This document shows positions 19,218 to 28,574 of a stretch of 64,000 nucleotides of DNA, in pieces. Positions within the stretch are counted from its first letter, which is position 1; each line of letters starts with the position of its first letter. The notes beneath the pieces are model-generated. The model saw only the letters and a list, made by a program, of their open reading frames with translations. It was not told the DNA's origin and did not search any database. The position numbers were made by a program, and so were the translations under genes. This stretch comes from an uncultured Clostridia bacterium (GTDB lineage: Bacteria > Bacillota > Clostridia > Oscillospirales > CAG-272), in contig CANPZU010000008.1 of assembly GCA_947588825.1 (NCBI GenBank), positions 1,031-65,030 of the forward strand, read 5' to 3'.

Positions 19218-20123
19218 ATGAAATTAAGATCACTTGCCGCACTCATGCTTGCTTTTGTTCTCTGCTTTTGCCTTGCCGCCTGTAAGGTGGTCGATAATTC
19301 CGACGGTACGTCAAATAATTCTTCCAGCAACCAAGGAAACACGGACATGGACGGCCCTGCTGCAAAGGGCGAGGTGAAATACAAATTTCTAAAGGTCGGC
19401 AAATCCCCTTGTACAATAATACGCACTCAAAACAGCACCGTAATTATCGACGCCGCCTCGGAAGATCAGGGCGGGGATATCGTGACATATCTTAATGAAA
19501 AGGCTGTAACAACTGTCGACTATCTTATAGTCACCAACTTTTCAAAAACTTGTATCGGCGGAGTTCCGACTCTTCTTCAAGCCGCCGGGATTACGGTAAA
19601 AAACATTTATGAGCCTTCCTATGCCAAGGACAGCAGCGCTTATACGTCGTATAAGAATGCTTTGGCTGCCGTAGGCATCACTCCAATCAAAATAGCGGGA
19701 GACACAAGTATCACGGTCGACGATTTGCAAATCAAGTTTTTGCCTCCGCTGAAGGATTATTCGTCCGCGCTCGACGAAAATGACGAGGGCAATTCCGTGG
19801 CACTTTCAATTTCACACGGAAACGCGAGATTTCTTTATACAAGCCGCGTCGCCGGGGACAGAGTCACAGAACTCATCTCGCAGATAGGCGACACCAAGTA
19901 CGATTTCATCACGGTTCCCAACTACGGAAGATACGATGCCAAATACGAAACGCTCTTTAACGCGATCTCGGCCAAGAACGCGGTCATATTCGCCTCAGCC
20001 AAAAATCCCCCCGAAACAAGCATGATACAACTGCTTGACAACGCGAATATAAAATACTATGTCACGCGCGACGGCGGAGTTGAGGCAAGCTCCGACGGAA
20101 CGGCATTTACAATAAAACAGTAA
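19218..20123 (+). CDS. lipoprotein with ComEC-type MBL fold but without the metal-binding motifs
   Basis: Lipobox MKLRSLAALMLAFVLCFCLAAC at the internal ATG at 19218 (GGGAGA RBS). Block order matches MBL lipoproteins, but DYLIVTNFSKTCIGG replaces the THxHxDHxGG block and VPNYGRYD replaces the GHHGS block. Confidence 0.6.
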   Translation: MKLRSLAALMLAFVLCFCLAACKVVDNSDGTSNNSSSNQGNTDMDGPAAKGEVKYKFLKVGKSPCTIIRTQNSTVIIDAASEDQGGDIVTYLNEKAVTTVDYLIVTNFSKTCIGGVPTLLQAAGITVKNIYEPSYAKDSSAYTSYKNALAAVGITPIKIAGDTSITVDDLQIKFLPPLKDYSSALDENDEGNSVALSISHGNARFLYTSRVAGDRVTELISQIGDTKYDFITVPNYGRYDAKYETLFNAISAKNAVIFASAKNPPETSMIQLLDNANIKYYVTRDGGVEASSDGTAFTIKQ

Positions 20124-20866
20124 TTGATTTTTTGCAGTACAGAAAAACAACAAGACGGTAAAAATAAAACAAAGCTCACTCGAGAAAGGGTGGGCTTTGC
20201 TCTTTTGGGGCAGTTGAAAGGATTATAAGGGCATAACAAGCAAATCAAAAGCGCCGCGCAAGCCGTCCCAAAGCTCTTGAATTTGCATGTGTGCGATTTT
20301 GGCGCGTTTGTTAAATATGTTTGCGCCATTTTTTTAGGTCGTGCAGGCTGAATAAAAAAGATGCCGCGAGAGGGCGGTGTCCAATAAAACAATTTCAGAT
20401 TGTTTTCGGAGTGCGGCATGATTTCGGTCATGCCGCAGTTCCGTTTTATGAGATCGTTCAAAAGCGAGGCCGGGAGTATCGCTATGTAGTTGTAGCTGAT
20501 GTCCACATCCTGAACCCGATGCCCGCCGGACTTGTCCGGCGCATGAACATAGACCGCTTTGACCAGATTGTTCAGGATCGCAGGCGTCAGCTCCGTCAGA
20601 TAGAGATACTTCTTCACCGTGCGGATGAAACGGTCTACATTGTCCGCCTGATCCTCCTGCTCGCAAATCTCCTTGGTCAGGACAGCGATCCTTTCTCGCA
20701 GCTCCGTTTGCTCCTTTTCGTAGTCGTCGGAAAGCATCTGAAACCTTGCCTCGCTCAGCCGTCCTGCTACCATATCCTCATATATTCGCTTGAAAAGCCT
20801 GTCAAGCTCGGCAATACAACGGACATCTCTTCGCCCTTTTTGGGGTATGCCGTCGAAAATATCCCT
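20057..20866 (-). pseudogene. C-terminal remnant of a large serine recombinase (DUF4368-like tail); catalytic N-terminus absent
   Basis: The frame is open from the TAG at 20869-20867. AELDRLFKRIYEDMVAGRLSEARFQMLSDDYEKEQTELRERIAVLTKEI...VDRFIRTVKKY...LTPAILNNLVKAVYVHAPDKSGGHRVQDVDISYNYIAIL matches the C-terminal coiled-coil tail of Tn/ICE serine recombinases. There is no resolvase domain upstream. Below about 20440 the ORF carries no recognisable similarity and overlaps the convergent lipoprotein gene. Confidence 0.6.
20170..20207 (+). terminator. intrinsic terminator
   Basis: CAAAGCTCAC / GTGGGCTTTG 10-bp stem (one G-U pair) followed by CTCTTTT. Confidence 0.65.
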
Positions 20867-21004
20867 CTATTAGACAACGGACATTTTTTCGCCAAAATGC
20901 ACCCTCTGAATTGTAAAATTTCTGTGAATAGCAAAGTCCCTTTCACTTTACAACGGACAATTATTCAACAGGTGAGGGGGTGCCGGGAAAGAATATTTTG
21001 AGAA

Positions 21005-21143
21005 CAGCGGCATCCGCTACTTTAAAAAACTGAGGATGCCGCTGCTGTGTGAATACGGTTTTAGGAAGAACAGCAAGCAAATCCGCTGTCCGTACACAGC
21101 GGAAAAATGACCATCCTCCACGCCGCAGAGAACGGTCATTTTT
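21005..21143. other. cluster of three stem-loops (11 bp, 7 bp, about 10 bp stems)
   Basis: CAGCGGCATCC/GGATGCCGCTG (21005-21044). CCGCTGT/ACAGCGG (21083-21102). AAAAATGACC.../...GGTCATTTTT (21103-21143), which ends in a T-run. Confidence 0.6.
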
Positions 21144-21189
21144 ATTCGTGGGATAGTCCCACACCCTTATAGAAATCCGTCAAGGTCTC

Positions 21190-21218
21190 TTGATTTCATT
21201 CGTGTTTTCGAGTATAAT
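21190..21218 (+). promoter_or_regulatory. sigma-A type promoter of the HTH/R-M operon
   Basis: TTGATT (21190-21195), 17-nt spacer, TATAAT (21213-21218). Confidence 0.65.
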
Positions 21219-21255
21219 ATGCTTGTTGAATTATAGGGAAAAGGGGCGATGGAAG

Positions 21256-21450
21256 ATGAAATATCTGTCTGTCCGGCAGACATCGGAACGCTGGGGCATC
21301 TCCACCCGGCGCATACAGATTCTTTGCTGTGAGGGGCGCATTCCCGGAGCGGTACGGATAGGCTATACGTGGGCTATCCCTGACGACGAGCCGAAGCCAA
21401 GGGACGCAAGAATTAAGAGTGGGAAATATATTAAAAGTAAGAGTGATTAA
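21256..21450 (+). CDS. small helix-turn-helix DNA-binding protein (MerR/excisionase-like HTH)
   Basis: MKYLSVRQTSERWGISTRRIQILCCEGRIPGAVRIGYTWAIPDDEPKPRD is a typical stand-alone HTH of gut Firmicutes mobile elements. The ATG at 21256 has a purine-rich RBS. The upstream track extension looks non-coding. Confidence 0.7.
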   Translation: MKYLSVRQTSERWGISTRRIQILCCEGRIPGAVRIGYTWAIPDDEPKPRDARIKSGKYIKSKSD

Positions 21451-21467
21451 AGAAAGGAACTAATTGA

Positions 21468-22295
21468 ATGCCAAAGAAGAAAACTTGGATGGTTATACTG
21501 CTTATAGTTGTTGTGGCCGTTTTAACTATCGGGGTTCCTTTTGCCATAAATGAGGCCTACAAAGTTGACAAGGGATATGTAACCATGTGGGGCGCCGAAG
21601 ATGTACTAAGTTATTATGGCGCAATTCTTGGGGCAACTGCAACTGTTGCTGCCCTTGCCTTTACTATATGGTTTACCAAGAGACAAATCCAGCGGGACGC
21701 TTATTTGAAAAATGAGACTGATAAATGGAGACAGGTTGAATCCACCATTGGAAGCATCTTAAACGAAATAAATCCGATAATCATGTTGAAACGAGGTATG
21801 GATACTGAATTTATGGATCCCGGCTATGCCATGAACCAGTTTTCAAAATACAGCATGGATTGTCGGCTTACAACCGATCAGTTAATGACGCGTGTTAATA
21901 CTTTTGATTTTAAAATGATTTCCGAATTAGTTAAGCGGATACAAGAAGTTGCAGACAAGCTCTTTCAACTTAGTCAAAAGGAAATAGATCAACATAACAA
22001 GCGGCTGCAATTACAACAAAGAGAGAATGCGCGGAAATTGCTTGCAATAGAGCAGCAATATCCCGGCTCACTCCCCGCCTCTGAAATTGCGAGGCATCAG
22101 GAAACAATAAAGATGACAGATGGTATTTGTTTAGAAGAAATAACCGATTCTATAAACGAAATCAACAAAGAATTCTGGAACATATATGATACGGAGTTCA
22201 GGCCGCTATTGCAACTTAAAGGGACGACTTTTGAATCTATCTATATGCAAATTCAGGCAAATGCAGATGCTATATTGTCGTTTTGGAGGAAATAA
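21468..22295 (+). CDS. unknown protein: two N-terminal TM helices plus about 190-aa helical/coiled-coil cytoplasmic domain
   Basis: Hydrophobic segments WMVILLIVVVAVLTIGVPFAI and YYGAILGATATVAALAFTIWF. The rest is charged and helical (KRLQLQQRENARKLLAIEQQ). AAAGGAA RBS. AT-rich. The stop lies 2 nt before the mod start. Confidence 0.7.
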   Translation: MPKKKTWMVILLIVVVAVLTIGVPFAINEAYKVDKGYVTMWGAEDVLSYYGAILGATATVAALAFTIWFTKRQIQRDAYLKNETDKWRQVESTIGSILNEINPIIMLKRGMDTEFMDPGYAMNQFSKYSMDCRLTTDQLMTRVNTFDFKMISELVKRIQEVADKLFQLSQKEIDQHNKRLQLQQRENARKLLAIEQQYPGSLPASEIARHQETIKMTDGICLEEITDSINEINKEFWNIYDTEFRPLLQLKGTTFESIYMQIQANADAILSFWRK

Positions 22296-22297
22296 CT

Positions 22298-23890
22298 ATG
22301 CCCACCCTTGAATGGATCGGAAAAGATAAAGTGATCAATCACCACCAAGAGGTGCCCTATCGGGTGCTGGAGCGGCGGTACAGCTTTGATGCGAACGGGC
22401 AGCATGATGCCGACAACGGCAGCGAGAACATGATCATCCGGGGCGACAATCTGGAAGCGCTGAAGGCGCTGCTGCCCCGGTACGAGGGACGGGTCAAGTG
22501 CATCTACATAGATCCGCCGTACAACACGGGAAACGAAGGCTGGGTCTACAACGACAACGTGAACGACCCGAAGATCAAAAAGTGGCTCGGCGAAGTTGTC
22601 GGCAAAGAGGGCGAGGACTTGACCCGCCACGACAAGTGGCTGTGCATGATGTACCCACGGCTCAAGCTGCTGCAAAAACTGTTGGCGGACGATGGGGCTA
22701 TATTCATTAGTATTGATAATTCCGAACTATTTGAATTAAAATTGATATGTGACGAGGTGTTCGGTGCAAGAAACTATGTTGATACAATATCATGGTTTAA
22801 GAAAGCCTCGCCGTCAAATGATGCCCAGTTTTTTAGTAATGATATTGAATACATAATTGTGTATGCAAAACAGAAAGATGTTTGGCATCCATCTCGACTG
22901 ACATTATCGGAGAAGCAATTAAAATATTATCAAAACCCCGATAATGATCCCCGCGGACCTTGGAACTCTGCAACGTATACTTGCAACAAATCTAAGGACG
23001 AACGACCAAATTTATATTATCCAATAGTTAACCCTCATACTGGGACAGAAGTATTTCCGAAAATCACCGCAGTTTGGAAATATTCAAGGGAACAGACAGA
23101 GAGGTTTCAAAAAGATAATCGGATTTTTTGGGGAGTAGATGGAACAGCAAAATTCCCCCGCTTCAAAAAGTATTTGTCAGAACATGAGGGTGTTGTCAAT
23201 CGCACATTATGGCATTATGATGATGTAAATCATACTCAGGGGGCTTCCAATGAATTAAAACTTATTGGAATTAATGGATTTGCGACGCCGAAACCCACAA
23301 AATTAATTGAACGCATTATAAAAATTGCGGCTTCATCCGATTCTATTGTACTCGACTCCTTCGCCGGTTCCGGCACCACCGCCCATGCCGTTCTTAACAT
23401 GAACAAGGCCGACGGCGGCAACCGTAAGTTTATTCTCGTCGAGATGATGGACTACGCCGATTCCATCACCGCCGAGAGGGTTAAGCGCGTCATTCAGGGC
23501 TACGGAGAGGGCAAAAACGCCGTTGAGGGTACAGGGGGCGATTTCAGCTTTTACGACCTCGGCGAGCCGCTTTTGATCGGAGAAAACCTCAACGAAGCCG
23601 TGGGGACGGAGAAAATACGGGAGTATGTGTGGTTCATGGAGACAAAGTCTCCCTACGCTCCTGCCGAATGCGATAACCCCTATTGCCTCGGACGCCATAA
23701 CGACACCAGCTACTATTTCTACTACGAGCCGGAACGGATCACCGTTCTTGACTATGCGTTCCTCTCCGGCGTCACGGAGAGATCCGGCGGAACCGTTATC
23801 TACGCCGACCGCTGCGCCCTCGGCGAGGACAAGCTCGCGCAGATGGGGATCGTGTTCAAAAAGATACCCCGCGACATCAGCAGACTGTAA
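22298..23890 (+). CDS. mod: Type III restriction-modification methyltransferase (Mod, beta-class N6A/N4C MTase)
   Basis: Motif IV IYIDPPYNTGNEGW precedes motif I VLDSFAGSGTTAHAV, which is the beta-class order. HDKWLCMMYPRLKLL is present. A central variable region lies between the motifs. GGAGG RBS before the ATG at 22298. Confidence 0.9.
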   Translation: MPTLEWIGKDKVINHHQEVPYRVLERRYSFDANGQHDADNGSENMIIRGDNLEALKALLPRYEGRVKCIYIDPPYNTGNEGWVYNDNVNDPKIKKWLGEVVGKEGEDLTRHDKWLCMMYPRLKLLQKLLADDGAIFISIDNSELFELKLICDEVFGARNYVDTISWFKKASPSNDAQFFSNDIEYIIVYAKQKDVWHPSRLTLSEKQLKYYQNPDNDPRGPWNSATYTCNKSKDERPNLYYPIVNPHTGTEVFPKITAVWKYSREQTERFQKDNRIFWGVDGTAKFPRFKKYLSEHEGVVNRTLWHYDDVNHTQGASNELKLIGINGFATPKPTKLIERIIKIAASSDSIVLDSFAGSGTTAHAVLNMNKADGGNRKFILVEMMDYADSITAERVKRVIQGYGEGKNAVEGTGGDFSFYDLGEPLLIGENLNEAVGTEKIREYVWFMETKSPYAPAECDNPYCLGRHNDTSYYFYYEPERITVLDYAFLSGVTERSGGTVIYADRCALGEDKLAQMGIVFKKIPRDISRL

Positions 23891-23905
23891 AGGAGGCGGC
23901 GCATC

Positions 23906-26518
23906 ATGGAAATGAAAACCTATCAGAAAAAAGTGATTGCCGACCTCGTCCGCTATCTGGAACTGCTGAACGAGGTGCGTGACAGCGGCGTTGCGTTCTA
24001 CCACTTCTGGCATGAAAAGAGCGCACCATCTCTCGGCATCTATCAGGACATCCTGCCGGGTGTGCCGAATCTGTGCTTCAAAGTTCCCACGGGCGGCGGA
24101 AAGACGTTCATCGCCTGCAATTCCGTGCGTCCGATTTTCGACGCGCTGCCCGTCACAAAGACGAAAGCCGTCGTGTGGCTGGTGCCGTCCGATGCGATCC
24201 TCACGCAGACCGTTAAGGCACTGAAAGACGTCCGCCACCCGTACCGGCAGAAGATCGACGTGGATTTCGGCGGGCGTGTTGAGGTCTATACGAAAGAGGA
24301 ACTTCTGAACGGGCAGAATTTCAATCCCACCGCCGTCACTGAGCAACTTTCGATTATGGTGCTGTCTTACGACTCGTTCCGTGGGCGCGGCAAAGAGGGA
24401 CTGAAAGCCTATCAGGAGAACAGCAATCTCGCTAACTTTGCGAAGGTGCTGGGAAAGCCGGAAAATCCCATTGAGAAAGCGGACGAGTCCGCGCTGTTTC
24501 AGATCATCAATCAGTTGTCGCCCCTCGTGATAGTGGACGAGAGCCACCACGCACGGTCTGAGTTGAGTATCGAGATGCTGGCGAATTTCAATCCCTGCTT
24601 TGTGCTGGATTTGACTGCCACGCCGAAAAAAGAAAGCAATATTATCTCTTATGTGGACGCTGTGCAGCTCAAGAACGAGAACATGGTGAAGCTGCCTGTT
24701 ATCGTCTATAACCGGGACAGTCAGACGGAGGTTCTGACCGACGCCATCGACCTGCGGAACAAGTTAGAGGAAATCGCCGTCGCAGAACAGAAAAAGACAG
24801 GACGGTACATCCGCCCCATTGCATTGTTTCAGGCTCAGCCAAAGGGCAAAGAGGATGCGACGACATTTGAAAAACTCCGTGAAAAGCTGGTTGACGCCGG
24901 AATCCCTGCGGAGCAGATCGCTATCCGCACCGCCGATGTGAACGAACTGAAAAATATTGATTTGATGTCGCCAAACTGTCAGGTGCGGTACATCATCACC
25001 GTCAATGCCCTCAAAGAGGGCTGGGACTGCCCGTTTGCCTACATATTGGCGTCCCTTGCCAACAAGACGAGCCAAGTGGACGTGGAGCAGATTCTGGGAC
25101 GTATCCTCCGGCTGCCGCACACTGTTCAGCACAGCCAGACAGCGTTGAACATGTCCTATGTACTGACATCCTCCAATGATTTTGACGAGACGGTTCGCCG
25201 CATAATCCGTGGGCTCAACAGCGCCGGATTCAGCGATAAGGACTACCGTCTGTCCGCGCCGGTCGCCCCGAAGCCGGTCGTTTCCCACGAGCCGGAGCAG
25301 CTTGAACCACAACGGATGGAAACGCCTGATGAGGATAATTTCGACGGCGTAGACGGCGAGGCGATCGGGAAAGAGCTGGAGCGGCGCCGTGCGCAGAGCG
25401 ATACCGCCGAAGCGCCTCAAAAGGCGACGGATATGTTGAAAGACGCGGTAAAAGCGGGGCAGGACTACGACAAAGCGCGTAATGGTGCGGAGAATGATCC
25501 CTACACAAATGTCCTCCCGTGGGAGGTGCGTGAAAAGGTGACGACTTTCTATGTCCATCCGCAGTTCCGAAAAGACGTGGAGAACCTGATAATTCCGCAA
25601 TTTTTCCAAGTGGTGCCGGAGTCTCTTTTTACGGAAGGAACGCTGGAGCTATTGGAAAAGGAACAGCTTGCGGAGGGCTTTACGCTGAAGGGCAAGGCAT
25701 ACGATATTGACTTCGTTTCTGCGGACGATGAGATCGCCAAGGTCGATGTCCGGCAAAGCGAAGGCGGTTTGCCAAAGGTGTTCAAGATGTCCAGCGCCGA
25801 CCAGCGGTACTTCAAGGAGTATTTCAACAGCCTGCCGCCGGAAAGCCGTGTGCGTCAGTGCAAGGATATGATGTTCTCTCAGCTCAACAAAATGAACACG
25901 GTGGACGCCGCCGAGTTGAGGGCCTATATTGATCTGATTTTTGGATCGATGGACAAGGCTCAGCTTGCCGCCATGGAGAAAGCGCCGCTCGGCTATGCCG
26001 CAAAGATCAAGGCAAAGATTGAATCACTGCTGACAGAACATTACAAGGAAACCTTTGCCCGCTGGCTGGAGACGGAACGCATCGTCTGCCGTCCGTCGTA
26101 CCGTCTGCCCGTGTGCATCCATCCGATGGACAATACGGACATGATCGGCAGGTCGCTCTATCAGGCAGAAGAAGATATGAATCAGCTTGAGCAGGACTTG
26201 GTGATGGAGCTGACCGCCCTGCCCAACGTCCGTTGGTGGCATCGGAACATTGCGAAGCACGGCTTCTGTATAAACGGCTTTATCAATCACTACCCGGACA
26301 TTATGCTGATGACAAACAGCGGGAAGGTCATTTTTGTCGAGACAAAAGGCGAGCATCTGAAAAACGATGACAGCCGCGATAAAATCGCCCTTGGTCAGGC
26401 ATGGCGCAATGCGGCGGGCAGTCAGTTCAGGTATTACATGGTGTTCGCCGACGATGTTGAGCCTCTGCCGGGAGCGGTGGGGATGAAGCAGTTTGCGGAG
26501 ATCGTGAAAGAACTGTAA
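23906..26518 (+). CDS. res: Type III restriction enzyme Res subunit (SF2 helicase plus C-terminal PD-(D/E)xK-like nuclease)
   Basis: Walker A FKVPTGGGKTFIA. DEAH-type box LVIVDESHHA. Helicase C region ITVNALKEGWDCPFAYIL...QILGRILR. C-terminal VIFVETKGEHL. AAGGAGG RBS. Confidence 0.9.
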   Translation: MEMKTYQKKVIADLVRYLELLNEVRDSGVAFYHFWHEKSAPSLGIYQDILPGVPNLCFKVPTGGGKTFIACNSVRPIFDALPVTKTKAVVWLVPSDAILTQTVKALKDVRHPYRQKIDVDFGGRVEVYTKEELLNGQNFNPTAVTEQLSIMVLSYDSFRGRGKEGLKAYQENSNLANFAKVLGKPENPIEKADESALFQIINQLSPLVIVDESHHARSELSIEMLANFNPCFVLDLTATPKKESNIISYVDAVQLKNENMVKLPVIVYNRDSQTEVLTDAIDLRNKLEEIAVAEQKKTGRYIRPIALFQAQPKGKEDATTFEKLREKLVDAGIPAEQIAIRTADVNELKNIDLMSPNCQVRYIITVNALKEGWDCPFAYILASLANKTSQVDVEQILGRILRLPHTVQHSQTALNMSYVLTSSNDFDETVRRIIRGLNSAGFSDKDYRLSAPVAPKPVVSHEPEQLEPQRMETPDEDNFDGVDGEAIGKELERRRAQSDTAEAPQKATDMLKDAVKAGQDYDKARNGAENDPYTNVLPWEVREKVTTFYVHPQFRKDVENLIIPQFFQVVPESLFTEGTLELLEKEQLAEGFTLKGKAYDIDFVSADDEIAKVDVRQSEGGLPKVFKMSSADQRYFKEYFNSLPPESRVRQCKDMMFSQLNKMNTVDAAELRAYIDLIFGSMDKAQLAAMEKAPLGYAAKIKAKIESLLTEHYKETFARWLETERIVCRPSYRLPVCIHPMDNTDMIGRSLYQAEEDMNQLEQDLVMELTALPNVRWWHRNIAKHGFCINGFINHYPDIMLMTNSGKVIFVETKGEHLKNDDSRDKIALGQAWRNAAGSQFRYYMVFADDVEPLPGAVGMKQFAEIVKEL

Positions 26519-26542
26519 AACGCGAATATAGGAGGGGTTAAA

Positions 26543-27007
26543 TTGAAACAGTTTTTATATCTTGATACAGATATCGTTAATTCCATAATTGCGCAAGAAG
26601 AAAAAGGACTTGTTCAAGATTTTTCAAAAGACGATCAAAAAAATAAGACAAAAAGTACACATATTGAAGTTGGAGGGGAAGGTTTCGGTAAAGCGGAAGG
26701 TTCTCTCTTCAAACTGGCTAAGGCCGAGGCAAACCTCACTTTGTCGGTAGGCATAGAAAAAGATTATTCATCTGGCACGACAACACATGAAATTATCTCA
26801 AAAGTCCTACATGACGCAGCATTTGATGTAGCATACGAGTACATTCGCTCATGTAATTTTAAGTTGGGAAAAAGCAACTCAGATGACTATGGAGATTATG
26901 TAGAAATAAAGCGCGTATTTGACTTTGTGGATTTTGCTTATCTTGAGAATTTGTTTTCAAAAGGCGGATTGATAGAATATCAAAAAGTTATCGCGGGAAG
27001 AAATTGA
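26543..27007 (+). CDS. unknown protein (probable 5' half of a gene split by a frameshift)
   Basis: TTG start 5-6 nt after a strong AGGAGGGG RBS. MKQFLYLDTDIVNSIIAQEEKGLVQDF... AT-rich. The stop at 27005-27007 comes just after an A5 run (26982-26986). Confidence 0.6.
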   Translation: MKQFLYLDTDIVNSIIAQEEKGLVQDFSKDDQKNKTKSTHIEVGGEGFGKAEGSLFKLAKAEANLTLSVGIEKDYSSGTTTHEIISKVLHDAAFDVAYEYIRSCNFKLGKSNSDDYGDYVEIKRVFDFVDFAYLENLFSKGGLIEYQKVIAGRN

Positions 27008-27035
27008 GATAAGACTTGGTCAGGCAACGGAAAAA

Positions 27036-27443
27036 ATGAACCGCGATCAGTTACGTAACTCAGAAAAGCAGATTAAAGCAGAAATGAAAAAAATTGTTGA
27101 AACAAGCGACAAACAATATGACGATGTTCATGATATTATTGCTGCGTTTCGACAATTAGTGCCGTATACACGTATGCTAATTTCTCATGATGGGTATCTC
27201 ATTCCTTTGGATGATAAATATTTTAGAGTAAATCCAGAAAGTCTTGGTTTTAGATATGGTGGAGAAATAACGTGTGTTGGAATGATAACAAATATAATCG
27301 GTGCAGACACAAATCCAAACGATCCTAAAAATATATTTGCAACTTTACAGTTTACTGTGAATGAAGCCCTAAGAAAAATCTTGCCAACGGCAGAAGAAAA
27401 TCTGTGTGTTATTCATCCTATTGCTGTATTTTACGGGGATTAA
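27036..27443 (+). CDS. unknown protein (probable 3' half of the same split gene)
   Basis: No convincing SD before the ATG at 27036. Its frame is already open from 26976, overlapping the end of the previous ORF in the +1 frame. Confidence 0.5.
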   Translation: MNRDQLRNSEKQIKAEMKKIVETSDKQYDDVHDIIAAFRQLVPYTRMLISHDGYLIPLDDKYFRVNPESLGFRYGGEITCVGMITNIIGADTNPNDPKNIFATLQFTVNEALRKILPTAEENLCVIHPIAVFYGD

Positions 27444-27460
27444 ATCTTCAGAGAAAAACA

Positions 27461-27495
27461 GCCATACTCAGTCAATAAACCGAGTGTGGCCGTTT
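27461..27495 (+). terminator. intrinsic terminator closing the R-M operon
   Basis: GCCATACTC / GAGTGTGGC stem (27461-27490, one G-U pair) followed by CGTTTTATTT. Confidence 0.7.
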
Positions 27496-27656
27496 TATTT
27501 GTTGCACCCCTGTTTGGCAGCTGCTCTTTGTTAGTATAGTTTTGATACTGCTTTATTGAAAGCTGCCTCGGGGCGGCAATCTTTATAATTTTTTAAGATA
27601 ATTTTTGAAGAGGAAAAAAGCAAAGAATATTTTTTAGTGTACGGCAGAGAGTAAAA

Positions 27657-28442
27657 TCACTCTTGGAGGTCTTTTGAATTATCATCGTTTCCCGAAGAGT
27701 CCTTAATAGAAGGTTGTGCATTCTCTTGGGATGGAACTTCTTCCCCGGCGTCGTCAAGAAGGCTGAGAAGAAAGTCGTTGTCCGAAAAGGAGAGAGTGTT
27801 GTATATATTTTTCTCCGCGTAGCCCTTGCAGATTTTATGCCGGCGCATAATGGCGTCGATTATATTCTTTTGAGTTCTTCCGTTCATTATTGGAGCGCTG
27901 CAGAGATTTTGGCAGAAGGGAATGAGCATGTCGCCAGTCATAACATTGTCAGAATAAAGCTCGTCATAGCTTGCATGATCGTCGGAGAGCAGGACTATGT
28001 TGTATATGTTTTGCGAAGGTATGCCCGCCTTCATAAGTATATCGTCGATCTCGGCGGTATAGCGCTTTCCGATCTTTGCGAAGTTTGGGATTTCTTCGGT
28101 GACGCCGTTGTTTGTGACTGTCCAGCTTTCCTCGGGCAAGGTGACGAAAAACCCCTTTTTATCGACTACCGTGATAACGACGACGCCGCCCTTAAGAACT
28201 GCCACAACATCGGCTTTGGGAGGAATATTGTTATCTCCGGCCTTTAGAAGGTATACGCTTCGAAGGACCGCTTTTTTATAGTAAAGCTTCATCAGCGAGT
28301 AAGCGAACCGATAATCGCGCGCGCTGTCTGCGTAAATTGCAAAAAGGCGGGAAAGCTTTCGTATGGCAAAAAACATATATGTAACGGTTGCCGCGGCGAT
28401 GAGCGCGCAGCAAATCAAAAACACTACAGTGGCCGTTTGCAT
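27657..28442 (-). CDS. membrane-anchored NERD-like (nuclease-related domain) protein
   Basis: N-terminal TM helix TATVVFLICCALIAAATVTYMFFAI. ADVVAVLKGGVVVITVVDKKGFF...W...NFAKIGKRYTAEIDDIL follows the NERD pattern (D-x-V...G-V-x-V-I-E/D-x-K). ATG at 28442 with a GAAAGGA RBS is preferred over 28460. Confidence 0.5.
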   Translation of the reverse strand: MQTATVVFLICCALIAAATVTYMFFAIRKLSRLFAIYADSARDYRFAYSLMKLYYKKAVLRSVYLLKAGDNNIPPKADVVAVLKGGVVVITVVDKKGFFVTLPEESWTVTNNGVTEEIPNFAKIGKRYTAEIDDILMKAGIPSQNIYNIVLLSDDHASYDELYSDNVMTGDMLIPFCQNLCSAPIMNGRTQKNIIDAIMRRHKICKGYAEKNIYNTLSFSDNDFLLSLLDDAGEEVPSQENAQPSIKDSSGNDDNSKDLQE

Positions 28443-28574
28443 GAATAAACATCCTTTCAAAACGCGTCATATTTGCCAAGCGGCAGACACACCCGCGTTT
28501 ATTATATTATAAAATAAATTTTCGATTTTGTCAATCGGTTTGTAAATAATGCGACAAAATGTGTGTAAATGTGA

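Follow-up and report, generated by a model that had tools for sequence, protein, structure and literature searches.

What does a membrane-protein gene do two nucleotides in front of a Type III restriction-modification (R-M) methyltransferase gene? Canonical Type III R-M systems (EcoP15I/EcoP1I type, Mod2Res) consist of two genes. In a 64,000-nucleotide (nt) stretch of contig CANPZU010000008.1 from an uncultured Clostridia bacterium, referred to here as the window, mod and res are ordinary members of this class, and the difference lies in an optional third gene ahead of them, which encodes P0001, a 275-amino-acid (aa) protein with two predicted transmembrane (TM) helices. The family of this 2-TM protein appears, from the sequence surveys, to be sizeable, unnamed, absent from Pfam, NCBIfam, PHROGs and PADLOC, and unusually faithful to Type III operons. 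The reading that we favour, with a rough probability of 0.5, is that the gene of P0001 is an accessory defence gene, self-contained and acting at the membrane, which is expressed with the R-M system on an acquired island; that it defends the cell and that it does so at the membrane are both what we infer, from a design that joins a membrane hairpin to an exchangeable domain and from neighbours that belong to defence systems and mobile elements.

The 2-TM protein and its family

The open reading frame (ORF) was confirmed from its ATG start to the TAA at 22293-22295. Its parts are listed here; L129 is a related locus to which we return below.

21468..22295, + strand: gene of the 2-TM and helical-domain protein P0001 (ORF, translation, AlphaFold2 model, family search, and ratio of nonsynonymous to synonymous substitution rates, dN/dS)
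21489..21674, + strand: conserved head, made of TM1 (residues 8-27), an outer loop (28-45, INEAYK..GY.T.W.A.DVLSYYG) and TM2 (46-69) (hydropathy, charge, family conservation)
21675..22292, + strand: predicted all-helical cytoplasmic domain, residues 70-275, about 205 aa (AlphaFold2, DNA comparison with L129)

TM1 is strongly hydrophobic (Kyte-Doolittle 19-residue mean up to 3.07), and TM2 is weaker by hydropathy and rich in Gly, Ala and Thr. A KKK stretch precedes TM1, the K/R-rich sequence TKRQIQRD follows TM2, and the loop between them is net negative, so that the positive-inside rule predicts an N-in/C-in topology in which 18 residues form the outer loop and residues 70-275 are cytoplasmic. 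The AlphaFold2 model, made with 36 homologues, is all-helical (predicted local distance difference test score, pLDDT, 83.5; predicted template-modelling score, pTM, 0.66), with three long helices of about 50 residues each (43-100, 145-197 and 222-270) and a pLDDT of 88-95 across most of residues 70-275. Hydropathy and model thus agree with the architecture proposed in the preliminary description of this DNA, two N-terminal hydrophobic helices followed by a long helical domain, and support a helical bundle; its statement that there is no recognisable catalytic motif also holds, as no catalytic family matched P0001 in Pfam, NCBIfam, PHROG or PADLOC. In pairwise comparison with two 80% identical relatives, head and tail alike give dN/dS values of 0.13-0.28, and this is consequently a real coding gene under purifying selection over its whole length. 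Positive selection in the cytoplasmic domain was considered and rejected, the values in close relatives being 0.13-0.25.

A word-seeded search with P0001 returned 42 clusters, and an exhaustive profile search 1079 representatives at E<=1e-3, of which 141 were at E<=1e-30; no name and no precomputed Pfam domain was attached to any of these clusters or representatives. P0001 gave nothing above threshold in Pfam, NCBIfam, PHROGs or PADLOC. When 107 family members were scanned singly against Pfam, no family was matched by more than 5 members and no SLATT family was listed; against PADLOC-DB v2 (5027 models) the same members gave only scattered single matches to 15 unrelated models, and P0001 itself gave none. 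Membership of DUF2254 was rejected, since the match reaches 15.5 bits against a gathering threshold of 28.8 (E=0.008), covers the TM hairpin only (residues 4-68) and occurs in one of the 107 members. A profile search of the PDB sequences gave a best E value of 0.076, and Foldseek searches of PDB and BFVD with the confident P0001 model gave no match at E<=0.001. The best structural matches were designed helical bundles, BAR domains and PspA, all with template-modelling scores of 0.2-0.3, and BAR, ClyA/XaxB and PspA-like readings were rejected on these non-significant fold matches. The preliminary description had likened the protein to effectors of abortive-infection-type systems, and a clear match to a housekeeping membrane-protein family would have spoken against this; such a match was looked for, and none was found. 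By tblastn there was no relative in 50,697 phage records or 72,556 plasmid records, and we found no paper on this gene or on a membrane protein leading Type III operons.

Named genome matches come from metagenome-assembled genomes or isolates of Lachnospiraceae, Oscillospiraceae and other Clostridia, and metagenome matches mostly from gut samples. Among the 107 members the nearly invariant columns (P24, I27, N28, Y31, T39, W41, L47, Y49, Y50, G51, T66, I67, Q73, W87 and P103) all fall within residues 24-103.

The junction with mod and its recurrence

The elements that join the 2-TM gene to the R-M genes are the following.

21190..21218, + strand: promoter-like site TTGATT-17-TATAAT, ahead of a helix-turn-helix (HTH) gene (10/12 consensus matches; a consensus match only)
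22285..22289, + strand: GGAGG Shine-Dalgarno (SD) sequence of mod, inside P0001 codons 273-274 (W-R), kept in every lineage examined
22298..23890, + strand: Type III mod, N6_N4 DNA methyltransferase (PADLOC MTase_III, E=1.6e-214, full length; Pfam N6_N4_Mtase, E=8e-42)
23906..26518, + strand: Type III res (PADLOC REase_III, E=2.3e-81; Pfam ResIII, E=1.8e-17)

The ATG of mod at 22298 leaves a gap of 2 nt (CT) after the P0001 stop. This gap had been described correctly, as had the presence of the mod SD in the last codons of the upstream gene, and only the placing of the SD at 22284-22288 needs to be moved one base to the right. The 2-TM/mod junction is found again in divergent lineages, as 21 distinct sequences, and takes two forms only, a stop codon 2 nt ahead of the mod ATG or a 14-nt overlap in which TGA lies across mod codons 4-5, and the last codons of the 2-TM genes encode a GGAGG-type SD (consensus ..L-W/R-R-K). 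Because the same junction recurs across divergent lineages, the tight abutment of the two genes is not due to chance. A consensus scan found no + strand terminator-like site ahead of 27562, and this, together with the conserved junction and the single promoter-like site, strongly supports the coupled expression that had been suggested for the two genes. The 2-TM gene would be transcribed from the operon promoter along with the HTH gene, mod and res, and would be translationally coupled to mod, since the ribosome-binding site of mod lies in its last codons.

How general this linkage is was addressed in about 115 collected loci with a family member, of which 104 had a usable gene copy and 96 an assessable downstream side. 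These loci were chosen by similarity to P0001, many of the metagenome contigs are short, and ORFs were called crudely by a simple script, so that percentages are approximate; near-duplicates inflate the raw counts, and counts are also given for 36 non-redundant lineages, obtained by collapsing copies at >=97% identity. A Type III mod directly follows the 2-TM gene in 66 of the 96 loci and in 23 of the 36 lineages, and a TM protein upstream of a Type III Mod, called unusual in the preliminary description, is for this family the rule. Three further lineages have other methyltransferase systems downstream (N6_Mtase with an S-like subunit; C5-methyltransferase/MutH/Vsr; IceA with a C5-methyltransferase), one has SLFN-AlbA_2/KptA, and nine have no R-M. 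The mod-linked state is present in every major clade of the family tree, including members 31-33% identical to P0001. Remnants of the mod N-terminus stand right after the 2-TM stop codon in the IceA lineage (11 codons) and in the SLFN lineage (27 codons), and these two lineages consequently descend from a 2-TM-mod arrangement; the window DNA aligns with the SLFN locus through 22377. Since a Mod of this type is present in just 21 of 399 other genomes of the same class, the likelihood of a chance adjacency is negligible.

In the lineage with N6_Mtase (L004:8885-16828, L009 and L010), a 675-aa N6_Mtase/Eco57I-type enzyme and a 473-aa S-like subunit lie downstream of the 2-TM gene, with a 326-aa unannotated gene directly upstream of it; in L004 a 455-aa protein of no known kind and a 1241-aa nSTAND NTPase come after the S-like subunit.

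The upstream side is variable, being occupied by a 353-aa Fic protein with a winged HTH, a 201-aa Fic, AbiEi/AbiEii, SLFN-AlbA_2, sigma-70-like or HTH genes or a Gabija-like pair, and the 2-TM gene is thus, among the accessory genes, the one that stays attached to mod. The longer Fic protein, whose winged-helix-like region is C-terminal, overlaps the 2-TM start by 4 nt in 24 loci (e.g. L036:5434-6495), and the 201-aa Fic takes this place in other loci. Over the loci as a whole the defence neighbours comprise Fic, AbiEi/AbiEii, SLFN-AlbA_2, the Gabija-like pair, GmrSD, AbiH, TIR, OLD, a PARIS-like AAA_21-DUF4435 protein and DUF6414, and the mobile-element neighbours relaxases, recombinases and TnpV. 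The homologues are therefore not scattered without a link to R-M or mobile elements, a pattern that would have spoken against the effector idea, but are tightly linked to R-M and to mobile and defence islands. The PARIS-like gene, a 537-aa fusion of an AAA_21 ATPase and DUF4435, lies between mod and res in L035, L038, L044, L064, L070, L087 (10434-12047) and L094, and is not in the window operon.

These observations bear on whether the gene has a defence role at all. It might instead encode a housekeeping or maintenance protein of a mobile element, or be kept mainly for the 3' signals that express mod: the mod SD lies within its last codons, so that its deletion would harm mod expression, and mobile-element genes are frequent neighbours. 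We consider this unlikely, however, as purifying selection acts at the protein level along the full length, intact copies occur where no mod remains to be expressed (see below), the link to mod persists while upstream neighbours change freely, and the gene was not found on plasmids.

An optional gene with an exchangeable domain

The cytoplasmic domain of P0001 can be replaced as a unit. P0039 is identical to P0001 over residues 1-51 and continues with an unrelated sequence of 220 residues, and P0041 (L129:2076-2945), a close relative of P0039, is encoded behind a 95% identical HTH gene and overlaps by 14 nt a 528-aa Type III mod; the same 2-TM head with an unrelated C-terminal domain is found in P0039, P0041 and P0244. 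Between the window and L129 the DNA is homologous over 21000-21619 (83%) and diverges completely from there up to the mod ATG at 22298; homology returns over 22298-22755 (88%), is lost over the target-recognition region of Mod and is back over 23337-24027 (90%). As the homology stops at 21619 and resumes exactly at 22298, the cytoplasmic domain appears, from this comparison, to behave as an exchangeable cassette, like the target-recognition domain of Mod. The latter region (window 22756-23336) is non-homologous to its counterpart in L129 or L020, with flanking mod segments 88-90% identical, and this indicates a swap of the target-recognition domain.

The alternative tail of P0041 is beta-rich in a low-confidence AlphaFold2 model (pLDDT 60.7). 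Proteins with the same 2-TM head, the INE.YK...W.A.DVLSYYG loop and a beta-rich C-terminal domain (P0041, P0039, P0244, P0245 and L018:7932-8585) make up a second family, which has no Pfam match and whose gene overlaps the Type III mod by 14 nt in L129-L132. Diverged relatives of the tail are P0244, P0245 and a 217-aa protein encoded after a Res-like helicase gene on a contig of a viral collection.

The 2-TM gene is optional and is not a core component of Type III R-M. In none of the 21 other Mod-bearing genomes does a family member lie within 1.5 kb of the Mod homologue (E<=1e-60), and the Mods without a 2-TM gene include ones that are 60% identical over the full length or 69-76% in the N-terminal domain. 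Beside some of these Mods a small HTH_26 gene stands in the 2-TM position. Conversely, intact 2-TM genes are found beside mod stubs of 72 residues (L079, L083, L092, L093, L095 and L042), 129 residues (L063, L076, L086 and L090) or 143 residues (L034, L057, L062 and L073), each starting at residue 1, with no res up to 8 kb downstream. The R-M system can thus do without the gene, and the gene persists where that system is lost. In several of these loci an AbiH gene stands in the place of res, and in two different 2-TM lineages it follows the 72-residue stub. Four of the stubs (L057, L062, L063 and L073) are 92-94% identical to the window Mod, although the 2-TM genes beside them are only about 37% identical to that of the window, and the conserved 5' part of mod seems to act as an anchor at which cassettes are exchanged by recombination.

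Co-variation with the enzymes is also weak. For the similarity of the 2-TM protein, the correlation is r=0.50 with that of the conserved Mod C-terminal block (residues 335-530) and r=0.39 with that of Res, against r=0.94 between the block and Res, and the Mod N-terminal domain remains 68-82% identical where the 2-TM protein is only 33-41% identical.

One idea that follows from the preliminary description is an effector kept in check by mod/res, and its most explicit form is a guard of the Ronin/PrrC type, a latent membrane toxin that would be silenced by Mod or Mod-Res and freed when a phage anti-restriction protein disables the R-M system. Its closest precedent is RonA, a 61-aa TM protein tightly linked to hsdM/hsdS that is lethal alone, silenced by HsdMS and triggered by Ocr, ArdA and Aop1 (Silas et al., 10.1101/2023.04.06.535777). 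The very tight and ancient linkage and the translational coupling to a methyltransferase gene fit such a guard, as do the four kinds of methyltransferase partner (Type III; N6_Mtase with S; C5-methyltransferase/MutH/Vsr; IceA with C5-methyltransferase), and the PARIS-like gene in several of the same operons makes anti-restriction pressure on these loci plausible. A toxin silenced by Mod should not, however, survive intact beside mod stubs without res, as it does with at least three separate truncation points, nor are its intact copies alone next to AbiE, HTH or recombinase genes expected; with the weak co-variation, and with one R-M backbone carrying two unrelated cytoplasmic domains, the idea is weakened and we now regard a guard as distinctly improbable.

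The same comparisons bear on a membrane tether, in which the cytoplasmic domain would bind Mod or Res and hold the enzyme where foreign DNA enters, thereby sharpening the distinction between self and non-self, a logic attributed to SNIPE and Zorya. The C-terminal domain is predicted to lie in the cytoplasm next to the membrane, the stoichiometric co-expression that translational coupling allows would suit a complex, and SNIPE offers the precedent of a nuclease at the membrane that can target DNA during injection (Nature 2026, PMC13190303). A docking surface is nonetheless hard to reconcile with a Mod N-terminus so much better conserved than the 2-TM protein, with a non-homologous cytoplasmic domain on the same mod backbone and with partner enzymes of unrelated architecture, and most Type III systems of this Mod type have no 2-TM gene; of the explanations weighed here we hold the tether to be the least probable. 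Two fused genes were set aside as evidence for contact because they look like deletion products: L085:827-4222, a 1131-aa in-frame 2-TM/Res fusion in which Res begins at about residue 33 and mod is deleted, and P0042, in which most of mod has gone and residues 1-47 of a 2-TM head run straight into the second half of Mod.

The island and the proposed role of the gene

The operon stands on a segment that has been acquired, together with the following features.

20124..27656, no strand assigned: acquired island of about 7.5 kb, with recombinase remnant, HTH gene, 2-TM gene, mod, res and broken DUF6414 gene (empty site in sister species)
20057..20773, - strand: C-terminal remnant of a large serine recombinase (Pfam DUF4368, E=3.5e-22, residues 36-97 only; no resolvase domain)
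21256..21450, + strand: HTH_17 gene, excisionase/MerR-like, 64 aa, 17 nt upstream of the 2-TM gene (Pfam HTH_17, E=5.7e-4; PHROG HTH DNA-binding protein, E=6.6e-6)
26543..27443, + strand: DUF6414 (DolA-like) gene at the operon tail, split into two ORFs that match profile positions 1-129 and 149-283
27657..28460, - strand: NERD-like membrane protein gene, chromosomal backbone, which adjoins the MBL-lipoprotein gene in the island-free sister species

In the sister species G006 and G011 about 400 nt separate the MBL-lipoprotein gene from the NERD-like gene, with nothing of the island between them, and since these species keep the flanking genes without it, 20124-27656 is an acquired island; no 2-TM family member was found in the 59 relatives searched. 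The DUF4368 remnant marks the old end of the mobile element. Copies of the HTH_17 gene occupy the same position in L129-L132 (95% identical) and in L020 (63%), and on its domain match this gene is a better candidate for an R-M controller than the 2-TM gene; controller (C) proteins are small, soluble HTH proteins, whereas P0001 has no HTH and is predicted to be embedded in the membrane. Intact DUF6414 genes (300-309 aa) behind res end the related 2-TM-bearing operons of L035, L044, L065 and L087, so that the head-to-tail 2-TM-mod-res-DUF6414 arrangement is a recurrent one.

We return to the reading given at the outset, that P0001 is a self-contained defence gene at the membrane. The protein would be inserted as a helical hairpin, N-in/C-in, and would ride as the leading gene product of the Type III operon. 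The conserved head, that is, TM1, the outer loop with its invariant N, Y, T, W and YYG, and the Gly/Ala-rich TM2, would be the working part, and the 205-residue cytoplasmic helical domain the exchangeable one. This domain may sense a cue of infection, upon which the hairpin would oligomerise and either compromise the membrane, as in abortive infection, or block a step of entry. The protein would work beside Mod and Res and not as a docked subunit.

Several observations weigh against this. Searches of Pfam, NCBIfam, PHROG, PADLOC, PDB and BFVD gave no match in sequence or fold that would indicate a pore, nuclease, sensor or known defence protein. The tail is constrained as much as the head in close relatives, with no sign of a short-range arms race. 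A simple pore-forming hairpin does not need a highly conserved outer loop, which could instead bind a component of the host envelope. Finally, translational coupling to mod is kept across about 70% sequence divergence, which is more than co-location on an island would account for and allows for some functional connection with the R-M enzyme.

The outer loop leads to a further explanation, superinfection or entry exclusion, in which hairpin and loop would bind a host envelope component used for the entry of phage or conjugative DNA and so raise a first barrier ahead of restriction. The greatest conservation is indeed in the loop and hairpin, as expected for a conserved host target, the gene is carried on integrative or mobilisable elements, and it is kept intact without R-M. 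Phages and plasmids are, however, the usual home of genes of the superinfection-exclusion (Sie) type, and their records held no relative; nor does a large, well-folded cytoplasmic domain under purifying selection have an obvious role in exclusion, which we therefore take to be quite unlikely.

The furthest-reaching alternative makes the 2-TM protein a true third component of a membrane-coupled Type III restriction system, one that links Mod/Res to the site of DNA entry, or that turns the failure or inhibition of restriction into membrane depolarisation, with the exchangeable domain setting which phage cue or enzyme state is read. We regard this as improbable. Were it true, Type III systems would have their own equivalent of Ronin/PrrC, or would distinguish self from non-self by location in the manner of SNIPE, through a family that has not been described.

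The organisation at this locus is that of an accessory gene attached to an R-M system: same strand, a 2-nt gap, a shared promoter-like site, optional presence, defence and mobile neighbours, and insertion as an island. Among known systems Ronin is the nearest precedent for the effector idea, as there too the gene of a membrane protein is closely tied to that of an R-M methyltransferase and provides a second layer behind restriction. RonA, however, has one TM helix in its 61 aa, while P0001 has two TM helices and a folded domain of 205 aa in its 275; RonA always accompanies hsdM/hsdS without hsdR, while P0001 precedes a complete Type III mod-res and its family is without R-M in the nine lineages mentioned above; and the two proteins have no sequence relation. 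The AbiC/AbiP group (FEMS Microbiol Rev 2026, PMC13064643) is similar in comprising single-gene, membrane-anchored defence proteins of Firmicutes, whose N-terminus carries one TM helix or two and whose non-membrane domain is comparable in size; as in P0001, no catalytic motif can be recognised in them. AbiP is a nucleic-acid-binding protein that responds to a major tail protein as its trigger, and neither AbiC nor AbiP is described as leading an R-M operon (PMC13064643); the comparison is by description only, and no sequence match to the P0001 family was found in PADLOC, Pfam or the plasmid records.

Optional and swappable defence genes nested in or fused to R-M operons form a known class, to which PrrC in Type Ic hsd loci and PARIS belong, together with the accessory defence genes that Payne et al. 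(10.1101/2024.01.29.577857) describe within operons of Hma, BREX, DISARM and Type I R-M; neither "membrane" nor "transmembrane" occurs in their text. The 2-TM loci resemble this class and also carry PARIS-like, DolA-like, AbiH, TIR and OLD genes, but the 2-TM family differs in that a single conserved junction attaches it to Type III operons at their 5' end, and in being far more faithful to its partner than other passengers. The membrane-bound nuclease SNIPE and ZorAB of Zorya are likewise membrane defence proteins whose cytoplasmic parts handle incoming DNA, from which P0001 differs in having neither a nuclease domain nor a MotAB-like domain. Swappable defence genes in R-M operons, and a small membrane toxin tied to an R-M methyltransferase, are thus already known; what is new is this non-homologous family.

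Type III R-M has been treated as a two-gene system, and here an unnamed family is joined to its front through one translationally coupled junction across lineages of about 30% identity. A conserved membrane hairpin with an exchangeable cytoplasmic domain looks like a design of effector plus sensor. If the family has no role in defence, its tight coupling to mod needs another explanation. If it protects against phage, it would be a new family of membrane-acting defence proteins for gut Clostridia, which experimental studies of defence have covered poorly, and the operon would provide a clean three-gene system in which to see how restriction and membrane-level defence combine.

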